A stretch of DNA of 64,000 nucleotides from IMG/VR virus record IMGVR_UViG_2718218131_000002. One strand, 5' to 3'. Shown here one piece after another: positions 51,742 through 62,539 of the stretch (its first letter is position 1; the number at the start of each line of letters is the position of its first letter). The notes under the pieces were generated by a model. The model had not been told where the DNA came from and searched no databases. It saw only the letters and a program-made list of their open reading frames with translations. The DNA comes from a virus (lineage: Duplodnaviria > Heunggongvirae > Uroviricota > Caudoviricetes). A program made the translations under genes and the position numbers.

Positions 51742-51968
51742 GTTAAGCATCCACAGGCTGGTATCTGCAACCGATTATAACGGATGCTTAACGTAATGCG
51801 TGAAGTATGGACATACTTTATCAATTAGTGTTTTTTGCCGTTTCATAATGTTTCAGGTTGTGCATTATGTTTTTGATTATAAACAAATTTGTGATTTTTC
51901 TTGTTCCAGCTTGTTTCACGTTGTAGCCCTTTGTGCAACGATCGGTGTAGTTAATGGTGTAGTTAATT

Positions 51969-53219
51969 GTGATGACCGGATTCAAAATTATGAGCAGAGC
52001 ACTTAACAAGCTGAGCGATACACAGCTAAGGAAAATCAACGGCACACCCGCCCAAAAAACAGCCTTTCTTAATGACGGTGGAAACTTGAGCGTCAGGCAT
52101 TCAACCAGCGGCCTTTTAACCTGGTATTTCACTTACAGGGCCGGAACGGGAAGGGGGGCATCACCGGAACGCATTAAGCTGGGAAATTATCCTGATCTGA
52201 GCCTGAAATCAGCCAGGGAAAAAGCCGCCCAGTGTCGCGCATGGCTGGCTGAGGGGAAAAATCCACGTCATGAGATGAATTACACCGTACAGGAAGCGTT
52301 AAAGCCTGTAACGGTTGGCGATGCGCTCACCTACTGGCTTGAGTCGTACGCAAAGGAAAACCGTGTGGATTATGACCCACTGAAAAAGCGGCTAAATAAT
52401 CACGTAATACAGCACATTGGCCCTATGCCGCTGGATAAATGCGAGCTACGGCACTGGCTGGCCTGTTTTGATCGGGTGGCAAAGCAAGCCCCTGTTTCCG
52501 CCGGGTTCCTGCTACAGACATGCAAACAGGCGCTTAAGTTCTGCCGGAAGCGGCGCTATGCAATCAGCAACGTTCTTGATGATATGAGTGTGGCTGACGT
52601 TGGGAAAAAACCGGATATAGGCGAACGTGTCTTAAGCACCAAAGAACTGGGCCAATTATTGCAGGCACTGGACAAAAAAATATTTTCCCCTTACTACGTC
52701 GCACTAATCCGCCTCCTGATTGTTTTCGGATGCCGGACAGTAGAACTGAGGTTATCGGAGATCGGCGAGTGGGATTTTACCGAAATGCTCTGGACCGTTC
52801 CGAAGGAGCACAGCAAAACGAAGGTGGCCATATTCCGGCCCATACCGGAAGCGATACTGCCGTTCATCACGCAGCTGGTGGAGCAGAACAGGCACACGGG
52901 CTTATTGCTGGGGGAAGTGAAACAGGAAACCAGCGTGTCGCAGTACGGCAGATTAGTGCACAGGAGGCTTAAACACCCTCACTGGTCACTGCATGACATC
53001 CGGCGCACCTTTACAACGATGCTGAACGATTTAGGCGTGGATCCTCACGTCGTGGAGCAGCTTACAGGCCACCAGATGCCAGGAATGCAGCGAGTTTATA
53101 ATCATTCCCGTTATCTGGATGCGAAACGCAATGCGCTGGATATGTGGGTGGAGCGGTTGGAGATACTGGCGGGAGCACATGAAAACGTAACCACGCTACC
53201 AGTATCCAGAAGAAAATAA
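51969..53219 (+). CDS. int: tyrosine integrase (P4-like)
   Basis: C-terminal catalytic region with R...HDIRRTF...Y; adjacent to the left repeat; true start may be 51990. Confidence 0.85.
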   Translation: MMTGFKIMSRALNKLSDTQLRKINGTPAQKTAFLNDGGNLSVRHSTSGLLTWYFTYRAGTGRGASPERIKLGNYPDLSLKSAREKAAQCRAWLAEGKNPRHEMNYTVQEALKPVTVGDALTYWLESYAKENRVDYDPLKKRLNNHVIQHIGPMPLDKCELRHWLACFDRVAKQAPVSAGFLLQTCKQALKFCRKRRYAISNVLDDMSVADVGKKPDIGERVLSTKELGQLLQALDKKIFSPYYVALIRLLIVFGCRTVELRLSEIGEWDFTEMLWTVPKEHSKTKVAIFRPIPEAILPFITQLVEQNRHTGLLLGEVKQETSVSQYGRLVHRRLKHPHWSLHDIRRTFTTMLNDLGVDPHVVEQLTGHQMPGMQRVYNHSRYLDAKRNALDMWVERLEILAGAHENVTTLPVSRRK

Positions 53220-53593
53220 TTTTTTTCGTGTTTTTTCAGTATGCGCATACTGGATAAGTGCACAGATACAACGTGAAACAATACGCAACAACGTGAAACA
53301 ACCACGAACAAGAGGCCAAAAAGTATACAGATTTATAAGTTGCTGATTTTTAATGATCAACTGGTTTTTTATACATTAGCGAATAACGCTTTAAATAGTG
53401 AGAAAAAAGGCATAAAACGAGATTTTATGCCTTTGCATAACACTGAATTAAAATATATTTTATTAAAATAACCCCGTTTCTGTAAAATACCCGCCACCAA
53501 CATTTGCCAACTCTGAATCACCCTGACACAATCAGACACATCCCAACGCAATAGAACACGAAATAACTCTTTAAGAAACGAAAGGGGGCAATA

Positions 53594-53782
53594 GTGTTAA
53601 GCACTGATCGGTTTATACGTGAAAAAGAATGCGAAAAGCTAACAGGCCTTAGCCGCTCATGCCGCTACCGCCTGGAAAAGGCCGGACAATTCCCATCACG
53701 GCGTAAGCTGGGCGGTCGTTCCGTTGGCTGGTCTTTATCCGAAGTTCTGGCATGGAAGGACAGCTGCGAGGCAGTTCACTAA
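53594..53782 (+). CDS. alpA: AlpA-family excisionase/transcriptional regulator
   Basis: 62 aa from GTG with good SD; HTH LTGLSRSCRYRLEKAGQFPSRRKLGGRSVGWSLSEV. Confidence 0.7.
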   Translation: MLSTDRFIREKECEKLTGLSRSCRYRLEKAGQFPSRRKLGGRSVGWSLSEVLAWKDSCEAVH

Positions 53783-54109
53783 TCAGGCTGGCGGCACACA
53801 GCCGCCACGCATCCACTAATACAGAGATCTAACCATGAATACTGGATATACGCCCGAACAGGGGCGGGGCTTCGTTCGGCCTGGTGAAACTGAAAAACAA
53901 CAAAATCGCGGTTTTTCAGACATAAAAAAAGCGGCCCCGATAAGGAGCCGCCTTTCTGAACAATTAACCTACTGCGCAAAAAATGAATCTGAGCAGGGGA
54001 ATTATATCAGCCAGGTGACGAAGCGCCACAATTGCCGGATAACGGGCAAAGAAAAGGCCACCTGTCACGGTGGCCAATGTGATCAGTGTGGTGGTTTGCT
54101 GGTGGATTG

Positions 54110-54289
54110 TCAGCCTTTTGGCACAATACCGCGCTGTTGTAATTCTTTACGGATTATTCGCTTTATCCAGGCAGCAAGAGAATCATCGCCGTCCTGTTGT
54201 TGTGCTTTTTCCATCTTTTCCCGTAAGTCAGGATCTAAACGAAACTGGAACGGAGGATTACCACGCCTTTCGTTTTTGTGTGTTGACAC
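54110..54289 (-). CDS. small YlcI/YnfO-like (DUF3950-type) protein, GTG start
   Basis: 59-aa ORF (VSTHKNERRGNPPFQFRLDPDLREKMEKAQQQDGDDSLAAWIKRI) not in the supplied track; paralogous to the 18116-18340 protein. Confidence 0.35.
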   Translation of the reverse strand: MSTHKNERRGNPPFQFRLDPDLREKMEKAQQQDGDDSLAAWIKRIIRKELQQRGIVPKG

Positions 54290-54349
54290 GTTAATTACAC
54301 CTCATGTAATGTATTTATGTGTAGTGACACATTACACACAATCAGCACA

Positions 54350-54480
54350 AAAAGCAAAGCCCCGCAAGTGTCGTTACCACTGGCAGGGCTTATAACCACA
54401 AACCGTTATGAGAGGTAGTTTTATGGCTGTAAGACAGCATACCCCACGCCTAGCGCACACACAAACGGCCTTTGTGTGGC
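54350..54480 (+). repeat. copy 1 of a ~125-bp imperfect direct repeat (hairpin AAGCCC...GGGCTT plus start of an Icd-like ORF)
   Basis: Near-identical to 55088-55225. Confidence 0.6.
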
Positions 54481-60827: not shown

Positions 60828-60960
60828 TGCGCGTTTTCGCTATTTATGAGCCTTTTTCGGGTGCTGGTGGTGGTTTTGTTGTTCGCTCTATCTCTATGAA
60901 TAAAAAGGAAAAGATAAAACCAATACACCAACCTGAAACATTACTTAAGTGGGGATATTG

Positions 60961-61503
60961 ATGAAATCGTACCTGATGAACAAAAAAAACATGGCGCAAA
61001 GCTGCCGTGTAAGTGCGACAGCGTTCGACAAGTGGGGAGTGACTCCCGTTGAACGTAAAGGCCGCGAGGCGTTTTATGATGTTGCCAGCGTAATAGACAA
61101 TCGGGTTAGCAATGCAATTAACCAGATTACAGACGACAAAGGCGAGATTGATAATGATGAACTTTTACGAGTCAGGATCAGATTACTGACAGCACAGGCG
61201 GAGGCGCAGGAACTTAAAAACGAGCGCGATCGCGGTGACGTGATTGATACAGAGTTTTGCATGTACGCGCTTTCAAAACTGGCGAGTCAGATTTCATCAA
61301 TCATGGACAGCCTCCCGCTTACTATGCAAAGGAGCTTCCCACAGATGGCCCCCGCCATGCTGGATGGCCTGAAAAAAGAAGTTGTCAGAGCCTGTAACGC
61401 ATGCACAAAACTTGATGAAAACATCCCGCGAATACTGTCCGATTATCTGATGGAAACTACCGGAAATGTGCCTGATAAGTTTCAGCCGGATAAAGACAAG
61501 TAA
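60961..61503 (+). CDS. Nu1-like small terminase homologue (candidate packaging-redirection protein)
   Basis: LLTAQAEAQELKNERDRGDVIDTEFCMYALSKLASQISSIMDSLPLTMQRSFPQ parallels Nu1 LTRAQADAQELKNARDSAEVVETAFCTFVLSRIAGEIASILDGIPLSVQRRFPE; sits ~135 bp after cosN as Nu1 does. Confidence 0.7.
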   Translation: MKSYLMNKKNMAQSCRVSATAFDKWGVTPVERKGREAFYDVASVIDNRVSNAINQITDDKGEIDNDELLRVRIRLLTAQAEAQELKNERDRGDVIDTEFCMYALSKLASQISSIMDSLPLTMQRSFPQMAPAMLDGLKKEVVRACNACTKLDENIPRILSDYLMETTGNVPDKFQPDKDK

Positions 61504-61514
61504 CGTAGCGCACA

Positions 61515-61796
61515 ATGACAGAAGCCGAACTACTGGGATTAATCCGCCGTGTTACCGGAATCAGCCAGCAGCATGACGAACAGGCCACGCAGCCGGACAG
61601 CGTGATCGCCGAAAATTACGTGCGTGTTGTTGCTGATGTAATGCGCCGTGATGGTATTGAGTTTAACGGCGTGGATATGCGCGACATACGAATCAGAGTA
61701 CTAGAGTTGCTGGCATACCGTCGACGCGTGGCGATGTATCAGGAGAGCGCGAAAAACACTTATCAGTGGAAGAAGCCGGAACGGCTGCGGCGGTAA
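61515..61796 (+). CDS. hypothetical protein following the Nu1-like gene
   Basis: 93-aa ORF, 12 nt after the Nu1-like stop. Confidence 0.3.
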   Translation: MTEAELLGLIRRVTGISQQHDEQATQPDSVIAENYVRVVADVMRRDGIEFNGVDMRDIRIRVLELLAYRRRVAMYQESAKNTYQWKKPERLRR

Positions 61797-61814
61797 CTTG
61801 CTGATATTCCCGAT

Positions 61815-62190
61815 AACGCAAAATTGCGTTGGCTGGCAAAGTGCAAAATTGCACGATGGCCTAACCCATTGATTATTTCGAAAACCTGCAATGCAGGAAA
61901 TCGGGGAAGTAAGCCTAAGCTATTGATTCTTTCGGAAACCTCAATTTGAGGAAGTCGGCGCGGTAACTCGCTGAACTTAAAGCAAAGCTCAAAATTGAGC
62001 TGGCTGAATAATCATTATGATTACGCAGATGATTAAGGAATGACCGAAGGCGGAAATTCGCCTGTGGTTGATGGGGGAGTTGCAGATCTGCAACTCGACC
62101 ATGAAACTACGGAAACTACCCGTAGTTTGGGTAGTAAGAGTAACACCCAGATTTTGGGGCTTACTCGTGATACCCAAATTTGGAGTATCG
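61815..62190. repeat. array of at least 9 distinct short palindromes with A/T-rich centres
   Basis: ACGCAAAATTGCGT, GTGCAAAATTGCAC, CCTGCAATGCAGG, CCTCAATTTGAGG, AGCTCAAAATTGAGCT, GGCGGAAATTCGCC, TTGCAGATCTGCAA, ACTACGG...CCGTAGT, CCCAGATTTTGGGG; two units share ~50 bp of flank. Confidence 0.5.
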
Positions 62191-62539
62191 GTGGCAACCA
62201 TAACGACTTTCGTTACGGTTGATGCTTTTACCCCATTGGGGGAAAGGTATTACGATAATCATAACACCTACCGAACAGGTAAAGCCCACCAGCCTGATTG
62301 ACATTTAACCGGAAAAAAGCCAGGTAGCCCCGTTATGTGGATCCCCATATCGACAGCAACGCCCCCTTAAAATTACCCGCCTTTATATTTCTTGTGCCTA
62401 TTTGTTCCACGTTGTTTCATACAGTGCGCCGAACGGTGTAGTTAATGGTGTAGTTAATTTGCGATTTTTGGCACTTTTGTTTGTGTATATTTTTAATTAA
62501 ATCAATGCATTAACTAATATCGGTGATAAAAGGACATAT

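Follow-up and report, generated by a model that had tools for sequence, protein, structure and literature searches.

An EcCICFT073-type phage-inducible chromosomal island between roxA and phoQ of Escherichia coli, probably with its own Nu1-family small terminase in place of Rpp

The DNA between roxA and phoQ in the stretch examined here raises two questions: what kind of element is inserted there, and how is that element directed into virions? The stretch (the window) is the 64,000 nucleotides of IMG/VR record IMGVR_UViG_2718218131_000002 (Caudoviricetes), in which a lambda-like prophage ends ~4.7 kb to the left of the element. A sequence-only reading of the window had described a phage-satellite-like island at this locus with its own cos site, a Nu1-like gene and capsid genes, and had left undecided whether such a gene combination matches a described family. 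Our comparisons indicate that the island is almost certainly a Gram-negative phage-inducible chromosomal island (PICI) of the EcCICFT073 type, with its own tyrosine integrase, inserted at the 3' end of phoQ. As an overall explanation, we consider it probable that the island is an EcCICFT073-type PICI with its own Nu1-family small terminase (TerS) in place of Rpp. The PICI family, its prototype at roxA(ycfD)/phoQ and its life cycle are already published, and the island adds a member rather than a new family. Features and coordinates are collected in Table 1.

The extent of the island was defined by alignment with a genome that lacks it (L015); the empty site there placed the ends at two GGACATAYTT cores and the island length between them at 10,723 bp. 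The published attachment (att) core of EcCICFT073 at ycfD-phoQ is GGACATATTT (Fillol-Salom 2018/2019), the sequence found here at the right end. The empty-site alignment and the presence of EcCICFT073 at the same site bear out a satellite-like island between roxA and phoQ. The same reading had taken 25-bp direct repeats as the boundaries. The repeat is real and is in fact an exact 26-bp sequence (CGGTGTAGTTAATGGTGTAGTTAATT, 51943-51968 and 62434-62459), made of a doubled 12-mer plus flanking bases, and each copy terminates a longer, imperfect repeat of 75 nt (79% identical); the boundary role did not hold, as the ends lie ~130 bp further out on the left and ~80 bp on the right. When a junction query was built on the 26-bp repeats, only about half of it aligned to island-free genomes, and the alignment with the empty site rules them out as att sites. 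In the reconstructed attP they lie 77-102 bp from the centre on one side and 130-155 bp on the other (left copy). In the attP of satellite P4, doubled arm repeats of 12 bp are annotated to either side of the core, and helper-embedded PICIs (HE-PICIs) carry a doubled motif at a similar arm distance, 81 and 132 bp away from the centre of attP; by this analogy the 26-bp repeats are probably P4-type integrase arm-type sites inside the element. A second motif family, ACAACGTGAAACAA, has four copies with at most one mismatch, all in the arm and regulatory regions of the island; AlpA or Int may bind them.

The island and EcCICFT073 share the roxA(ycfD)-phoQ site, the att core, a lambda-type cosQ/cosN with a cosB unlike that of the helper, and synteny from end to end: int, alpA, an icd-like gene, DUF4222, pri/rep, ori, an 81-aa gene, ssb, the capsid gene E, the decoration gene D, cos, a packaging-specificity gene and a 93-aa gene stand in the same order. 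Amino acid identities to EcCICFT073 are 94% for Int, 97% for AlpA, 98% for the YlcI-like protein, 88% for the 81-aa protein, 70% for the single-stranded DNA-binding protein (SSB) and 77% for the 93-aa protein; they are 55% for the capsid protein, 54% for the decoration protein and 48% for the replication protein. The general features of PICIs are also present. The island is small (PICIs being ~8-15 kb) with a dedicated att site and a short core repeat; int stands at the left followed by alpA, with most genes in one direction; the island has its own pri/rep followed by an iteron origin; and a helper-type cosQ/cosN is joined to its own cosB. No complete morphogenesis or lysis module is present, only the E, D and TerS homologues, and 21 of 29 reference PICIs carry a capsid gene. 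Pfam domains were found for int, alpA and ssb alike. The open reading frame (ORF) list and the domain and profile searches gave no large terminase (TerL), portal, protease, scaffold or tail gene among the island ORFs, in agreement with the gene inventory first drawn up for the element.

For EcCICFT073, AlpA-dependent induction by a helper, cos packaging and transfer by lambda and phi80 have been shown experimentally (PMC6092414, PMC6739421), and its capsid gene (c1499), decoration gene (c1500), lambda-like cosN sites and unusual cosB have been described (Fillol-Salom 2018). The shared att site and core, the synteny, the 94-97% identity of Int and AlpA, the cosN block and these published experiments together carry the identification as a PICI, and the direct comparison with EcCICFT073 supports the earlier proposal of a satellite needing a lambda-like helper for packaging and virion assembly. 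As to described families, a protein comparison matched the gene set to EcCICFT073 (capsid and decoration, c1499/c1500) and to the TerS-type islands EcCIIHE3034 and EcCI18098, which were catalogued in 2018 as TerS-encoding E. coli PICIs (Fillol-Salom 2018). The island differs from EcCICFT073 in having TerS instead of RppA, one cos instead of two, an AlpA-like gene instead of c1501, other iterons and no perC.

The packaging region is where the island departs from its prototype. An exact lambda cosN (GGGCGGCGACCT) occurs twice in the window, at 60816-60827 in the island and at 19853-19864 in the prophage, as expected from the claim of a lambda-type cos with the cosN of the prophage. Island and prophage are near-identical over ~68 bp of cosQ, cosN and I2, and the similarity ends where lambda R3 begins. 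There the island has a short cosB of its own with the N15-like sequence TTGTTGTT at the R3 position, and a possible inverted partner of the R3-position sequence lies at 60914-60931. PICI R3 lies at bp 48-65 from the cohesive end, and N15 R3 has been mapped to bp 48-60 (Murialdo and Feiss 2022). The short cosB is conserved in 5/5 short-TerS islands examined (shared GGTGGTGGTTTTGTTGTT) and is unlike both Rpp-type and lambda cosB; an Rpp island reads ACACCACCACCAC at the R3 position. In related islands an additional cos in inverted orientation (cos2) separates the specificity gene from the last gene (~11883 in L004 and in L005, ~10378 in L007, 18309 on the minus strand in L003); the cosB of cos2 has a lambda-like three-R-site layout in L004, L005 and L007 and CATGTCG-type R sites in L004 and L007. 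The island in the window has one cos and no cos2, and the gap from terS to the 93-aa gene is 11 bp.

Two further observations concern the cos region. A 25-nt sequence, GG(C/T)GCTGGTGGTGGT(A/T)TTT(T/G)TGTTC, is found at 54606-54630 and 60860-60884 with 22/25 matching positions; the latter is the proposed R3 region of cosB, and the former lies in the accessory region on a minus-strand 75-aa ORF, where it may represent a second binding site or have arisen by chance from a GGT-rich composition. A TTG-initiated ORF of 69 aa (60752-60961) spans cosQ, cosN and cosB, and some genome annotations (L008, L009) list it as a hypothetical protein; the ORF is probably artefactual, a by-product of cos being conserved at the DNA level.

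The gene beside cos codes for a 180-aa TerS whose claimed homology to Nu1 was borne out by the PF07471 match (81 bits) and by BLASTP against the prophage Nu1 (35% identical, E = 4e-35). The PF07471 profile covers residues 68-151 only; the BLASTP and MAFFT alignments with Nu1 and N15 gp1 are full length. N15 gp1 is the nearest phage relative at 46% identity, and no TerS in a 50,697-record phage collection exceeded that value. Residues 1-56, the DNA-binding domain, share 54.5% identity with N15 gp1 vs 34% with lambda-type Nu1, and the recognition-helix segment AFDKWGV is identical in TerS and N15 gp1. An AlphaFold2 model gave the N-terminus a winged helix-turn-helix (HTH) topology (predicted local distance difference test score, pLDDT, 74-85). 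A Foldseek search with this model returned weak matches to the winged-HTH proteins MerR, BldC and RacA (best E = 0.04, none at or below 0.001), and the TerS sequence gave no significant match in PDB, including the Nu1 domain and RppC. The Foldseek matches are taken as consistent with a winged-HTH fold of the N-terminal DNA-binding domain, and as no more than that.

In EcCICFT073 the gene after cos1 is rppA (c1503), and RppA binds the helper TerS and retargets it to island DNA (PMC6739421). The island TerS showed no similarity to RppA (E = 1.3), no island protein matched the CFT073 RppA ORF, and membership in the Rpp-type cos PICIs is ruled out, the product of the rppA slot being unrelated to RppA. 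Among the islands compared, at least three interchangeable cassettes occupy the slot beside cos. One encodes RppA, another a TerS whose DNA-binding domain is short and N15-like, and the third a chimeric TerS in which a lambda-like N-terminus is joined to the same PICI-specific C-terminal half and which adjoins a three-R-site cosB. All three occur at the roxA/phoQ site, each with its own cosB type (loci L003, L005, L007, L009 and L011). Lambda terminase is unable to package N15 DNA (Murialdo and Feiss), so that an N15-type cosB would oblige the island to supply a reader of its own. On the strength of the full-length alignment with Nu1 and gp1, the N15-like DNA-binding domain, the co-variation of cosB with the cassette and the lambda/N15 incompatibility, we favor, with some reserve, the view that TerS gives packaging specificity through the cosB of the island.

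How such a TerS would reach the helper TerL is a more delicate matter. That it binds TerL directly, with no part for the helper TerS, is a tentative proposal which in our estimate falls a little short of an even chance. A mixed complex is a somewhat less probable arrangement: TerS would act as Rpp does, joining the helper Nu1 through its central region and poisoning phage packaging, the island DNA-binding domain reading cosB and the Nu1 C-terminus reaching TerL. The gene stands exactly in the rppA slot beside cos1, EcCICFT073 strictly requires the helper TerS (PMC6739421), and TerS residues 81-165 are ~45% identical to Nu1 with a poorly conserved extreme C-terminus. The pairing of the same PICI-specific C-terminal half with two DNA-binding domains would also fit a conserved satellite-specific interaction surface. 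Against such an Rpp-like role, TerS lacks sequence similarity to RppA and is full length, aligning to the last residues of Nu1 and N15 gp1, whereas Rpp proteins are 30-40 residues shorter and have no TerL-binding domain (Murialdo and Feiss 2022).

The C-terminal half of TerS is 45% identical to that of N15 gp1, N15 and lambda being 79% identical there. Several points weigh against our overall explanation. In its last 36 residues, the TerL-binding region in lambda, TerS is 36% identical to lambda Nu1 and to N15 gp1, although these two are 78% alike; on that account it is uncertain whether TerS binds a lambda-type TerL directly. The TTGTTGTT sequence shared with the R3 site in the N15 left end is ~9 bp further from cosN in the island. 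The TerS-encoding IHE3034 and 18098 islands were not transferred after induction of their resident prophages (Fillol-Salom 2018), and no functional study of TerS-type E. coli PICIs was found in the literature searched; the 2022 PICI cos-site analysis by Murialdo and Feiss covers Rpp islands only. Two more such points, on the capsid genes and on the neighboring prophage, are given below.

The gpE-like and gpD-like genes noticed at the outset are true homologues (Phage_cap_E, E = 5e-41; HDPD, E = 4e-15). Island E is 41% identical to the prophage E over the full length. In PDB it matched 3BQW, a 351-aa 'putative capsid protein of prophage' which we take to be an E. coli CFT073 protein, at E = 1e-121, and lambda gpE (7VI9) at E = 4e-77. 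Between island D and the prophage D, identity is 40% across 77 aligned residues; the divergence lies in the N-terminal part of D. Both proteins are full length, and their genes are inherited as matched allele pairs. The ratio of nonsynonymous to synonymous substitution rates (dN/dS) is 0.04-0.09 for E and ~0.12 for D, indicating strong purifying selection on both, vs 0.25-0.29 for terS; across the packaging and capsid genes it ranges over 0.04-0.29. No phage E protein in the collection was >42% identical to island E. With this value and the 46% limit for TerS, sequence divergence marks island E and TerS as old satellite lineages.

The co-inheritance and the strong constraint mean that the E and D homologues clearly have some function. 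One candidate function is a shell: the island would be partly capsid-forming, building its own, possibly smaller, E/D shell on the portal, scaffold and protease of the helper, as an intermediate between PICIs and capsid-forming PICIs (cf-PICIs). The intact, matched and constrained E/D pair, the age of the satellite lineages and the fact that the N-terminal part of D is the part diverging from the helper D would all fit, but the island has no portal, protease or scaffold gene, and we regard this alternative as unlikely. In EcCICFT073, deletion of the capsid or decoration homologue altered neither transfer nor interference (Fillol-Salom 2018), which is one of the two further points just mentioned. 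E and D are thus among the most constrained genes of the island, yet dispensable in the sole experiments done. Equally unlikely, in our estimate, is the fullest version of the packaging proposal, in which an N15-type TerS and R3 grafted on a lambda cosQ/cosN take the helper TerL without the helper TerS and an E/D shell is built on the helper portal and scaffold. If true, TerL capture together with an own E/D shell would be a packaging strategy undescribed for cos satellites, and the island would be an intermediate on the way from classical PICIs to cf-PICIs.

Could the island instead be a decaying remnant, PICI-like but no longer mobilizable? Such a reading could draw on the failure of TerS-type islands to transfer in their native strains (Fillol-Salom 2018), on the single cos where relatives have two, and on the state of the neighboring prophage, which is degraded by insertion sequence (IS) elements. 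Yet none of the core ORFs is disrupted, and purifying selection acts on them all. The two att cores and the two arm repeats are likewise undamaged, the same modules turn up in hundreds of genomes and at several att sites, and deletion of cos2 in EcCICFT073 did not lower transfer (Fillol-Salom 2018). Decay therefore appears improbable, somewhat more so than a partly capsid-forming island.

The EcCICFT073-type PICI in the window is 100% identical in 8 complete genomes, E. coli SLK172 and seven others. Its cos/terS block was found in 762/5426 complete E. coli genomes (~14%), including Nissle 1917 and O157:H7 strains, and the same E/D allele in 395/5426. The island is a mosaic. The integration module is of the CFT073/O157 type; the replication module with its iterons is the most P4-like; the capsid, decoration and second AlpA-like genes form a block with the HE-PICI allele (95-96% DNA identity); and the cos/terS block is of the IHE3034 type minus the inverted cos2. 

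The prophage in the window had been proposed to supply exactly the functions that the island lacks. It does retain intact Nu1, A, W, B, C, D, E and tail genes. An IS21-family element, however, splits gpFI (27163-29802), ISApl1 splits the tail fiber gene (43693-44667), and the integrase is frameshifted (outside the window), so that only part of that proposal stands. An IS3-family element with an ALIL pseudoknot lies directly left of the prophage cos (18510-19723). The left end of the prophage is at a tRNA-Ser beside mtfA (SLK172 2029350-2036500) and its right end abuts potB; these mismatched ends suggest a recombinant prophage that cannot excise precisely. On the K-12 map mtfA and potB lie far from each other, a distance that would suggest a large rearrangement involving two prophages. 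Complementation of the island in trans by this prophage is conceivable, and the prophage is a weak helper candidate; its damage is the second of the remaining points against our interpretation, in that mobilization in this strain may need another helper.

The replication module resembles that of P4. The replication protein is 50.7% identical to P4 alpha over 452 aa, in the C-terminal two-thirds, and scored 95 bits with TIGR01613, under its cut-off of 108.7. The P4-type primase with iterons that had been read from the sequence is right as to the iterons, and its likeness to P4 alpha is confined to the two-thirds of alpha that carry the helicase and origin-binding functions. About 3.8 matches to the iteron GGTGAACAGT are expected in the whole window, and the observed count was reached in 0/100 shuffles. 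The iterons contain the octamer TGTTCACC, identical to the annotated type-1 repeats of P4 ori/crr; this octamer is absent from the CFT073, IHE3034 and O157 islands. These likenesses raise the possibility of a P4-like satellite exploiting a P2-like helper, and it could be added that AlpA is 47% identical to P4 ORF88 (Vis/AlpA homologue) and that the arm repeats are P4-style. In a tblastn search of all island proteins against P4, int, ORF88 and alpha were the sole matches; the island thus showed no counterpart of sid, psu, delta, epsilon or cI, and the cos, capsid, decoration and terminase homologues are of lambda/N15 rather than P2 type. A P2-dependent P4-like satellite is thus very improbable, far more so than decay, and membership in the P4-like satellites is ruled out by the missing sid, psu, delta and epsilon together with the lambda-type cos.

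By analogy with EcCICFT073, the life cycle of the island as a TerS-type PICI may be pictured as follows. A lambda-like helper would switch on alpA, AlpA and Int would excise the island, and the P4-alpha-like replication protein would fire the origin at the TGTTCACC iterons to give concatemers. The winged-helix domain of TerS, standing in for Rpp, would read the short cosB at the R3 position with TTGTTGTT and then steer the helper TerL to the DNA of the island; a lambda-type TerS should fail to recognize that DNA. TerL would cut at the lambda-type cosN, and the DNA would be packed into heads and tails made by the helper. Lambda packaging limits are roughly 78-105% of 48.5 kb; tetramers (42.9 kb; three copies, 32.2 kb) would therefore fit a full head, and with full-size heads the island would probably be packaged as multimers of ~4 x 10.7 kb.

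Table 1. Coordinates of the island and its features in the window.
Feature	Position	Strand	Evidence or remark
attL core GGACATACTT	51809..51818	+	chromosomal sequence stops here in alignment with island-free genome L015
Left doubled 12-mer (2x GGTGTAGTTAAT)	51943..51968	+	probable integrase arm-type site, not att core
Tyrosine integrase, 409 aa (ORF open from 51969)	51990..53219	+	Pfam Arm-DNA-bind_3 and Phage_integrase; 94% to EcCICFT073 Int
ACAACGTGAAACAA x2	53267..53301	+	between int and alpA; inverted copies 51911-51925 and 62402-62416
alpA, activator/excisionase	53594..53782	+	PF05930 E = 5e-18; 97% to EcCICFT073 AlpA, 47% to P4 ORF88
Accessory region	53835..55160		small minus-strand YlcI/YnfO (Arc-like) genes 54110-54289 and 54797-54976; 75-aa ORF 54512-54739
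Duplicated ~130-bp leader	54350-54482 and 55098-55231		accessory region
Icd-like gene	55172..55369	+	NCBIfam phage_ICD_like E = 5e-18
DUF4222 gene	55689..55988	+	Pfam E = 6e-17; same position in all PICIs compared
Replication protein pri/rep, D5/P4-alpha-type superfamily 3 (SF3) helicase with origin-binding part	55985..57802	+	Pfam D5_N, DUF5906, Pox_D5
Origin iterons, 10x GGTGAACAGT around AT-rich core	57815..58039		directly after replication gene
Conserved 81-aa gene	58090..58335	+	phrog_1231; 72-88% identical in other PICIs compared
SSB	58332..58754	+	PF00436 E = 4e-16
Major capsid protein E homologue, HK97 fold	58973..60013	+	Pfam Phage_cap_E 5e-41
Head decoration protein D homologue	60023..60364	+	Pfam HDPD 4e-15; PDB decoration protein chains 1TD0, 1C5E
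Second AlpA-like HTH protein, 127 aa	60376..60759	+	PF05930 1e-8, phrog_2790 2e-48; slot of c1501 in EcCICFT073
cosQ-cosN-I2 block, lambda type (cosN 60816-60827)	60783..60850	+	exact cosN GGGCGGCGACCT
Island-specific short cosB	60851..60960	+	R3 position (bp 48-65 from cohesive end) = GCTGGTGGTGGTTTTGTT, includes N15-like TTGTTGTT
Small terminase TerS, Nu1 family, 180 aa	60961..61503	+	PF07471 81.4 bits vs cut-off 30
Conserved 93-aa gene	61515..61796	+	phrog_1561; last gene in all PICIs compared
Non-coding right arm	61797..62531		palindromic hairpin run 61980-62200 and right doubled 12-mer
Right doubled 12-mer	62434-62459		within non-coding right arm
attR core GGACATATTT	62532..62541	+	chromosome resumes; overlaps phoQ stop codon

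Two of the smaller genes recur in other PICIs. The second AlpA-like gene is co-inherited with the same E/D allele in HE-PICIs (dN/dS ~0.07), and the 93-aa protein is 77-84% identical in EcCICFT073, IHE3034 and the O157 island (dN/dS 0.18-0.27). In the accessory region, the two ~130-bp leader copies are 91-94% identical and 748 bp apart; each contains a GC-rich hairpin and an Icd-like gene start, and together they flank two small minus-strand genes, an arrangement that resembles a tandem duplication of an accessory module. PADLOC detected no defense system in this region. An Rfam search of the whole island gave nothing at gathering thresholds, and in the duplicated leader only a sub-threshold R1162 antisense RNA (30.5 bits vs a cut-off of 55); this and the other sub-threshold matches (manA RNA, MIR1508) were far below the cut-offs and were treated as chance.

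The non-coding right arm contains about seven or eight short palindromic hairpins at 61980-62200, including the perfect palindrome GAGTTGCAGATCTGCAACTC. Compared with shuffled sequence, folding is much stronger on each of the two strands (z = -8.6 and -8.9), and the hairpins are therefore DNA-level inverted repeats without sign of strand bias. Parts of the arm are also found in PICIs inserted elsewhere, at other att sites, and some portion of the region has a match in 803 genomes; the homologues are 91-99% identical, too similar for covariation analysis.

Some features of the prophage and its surroundings were also recorded. The late region at 11015-14705 holds a DNA methyltransferase, a trio of tRNAs, an STnc100 small RNA and a SASA/NanS-like esterase, a layout associated with Stx phages; the esterase gene lies ~490 bp from the tRNAs, a gap with no room for stx genes. 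ARAGORN called the tRNAs Met/Arg/Arg, whereas RefSeq gives the one with the CAT anticodon as Ile. At its right end the prophage carries espO and espK, which encode type III effectors (45051-46748); a hok/sok toxin-antitoxin locus lies at 5470-5793, and a yersiniabactin island is found at a tRNA-Asn just outside the window. ISApl1, which splits the tail fiber gene, is the element that mobilizes mcr-1.

As a discovery the island has limited weight: the family, its life cycle and a prototype at the same locus have all been described before, and E. coli genomes commonly carry the modules. It is of specialist interest in that the ~14% of complete E. coli genomes noted above carry a PICI cos/terS block of the TerS type, and the three cassettes with matching cosB constitute a natural experiment in packaging specificity.

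Finally, the island can be set beside the other known systems. With P4 it shares the alpha-type helicase/origin-binding region, the iteron octamer, a Vis/AlpA homologue and the arm-repeat design, and it differs in the genes and cos type given above. With cf-PICIs of the EcCIEDL933 type it has in common a PICI backbone carrying a major capsid gene and terS, but it is without portal, protease, head-tail connectors, HNH and TerL, and its gene content rules out membership by the published definition. HE-PICIs of the 11capE type (PMC10111431) share the E/D/AlpA-like block and the attP arrangement; they sit inside the E gene of a lambdoid prophage, have another integrase and another motif sequence, and in two examined neither terS nor a cosN within one mismatch was present. 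Membership in that group is ruled out by the chromosomal roxA/phoQ location, outside any prophage gene. The pac-type Staphylococcus aureus pathogenicity islands would, by analogy, share a satellite TerS that redirects the helper TerL to satellite DNA (PMC6739421); they differ in that the island has cos rather than headful packaging, unrelated proteins and no identified Ppi homologue. Phage N15 is a complete phage with its own TerL; its gp1 is the nearest phage relative of the island TerS, and it shares with the island a short cosB with TTGTTGTT at the R3 position and a TerS gene near cosN. EcCIIHE3034 and EcCI18098 differ in their att site (cspD-clpS), Int (76%), a CFT073-type capsid allele (55% to that of the island), an extra inverted cos2 with lambda-like R sites and other iterons, and they share with the island TerS (85% identical in IHE3034), cos1 with the short cosB and the overall architecture.

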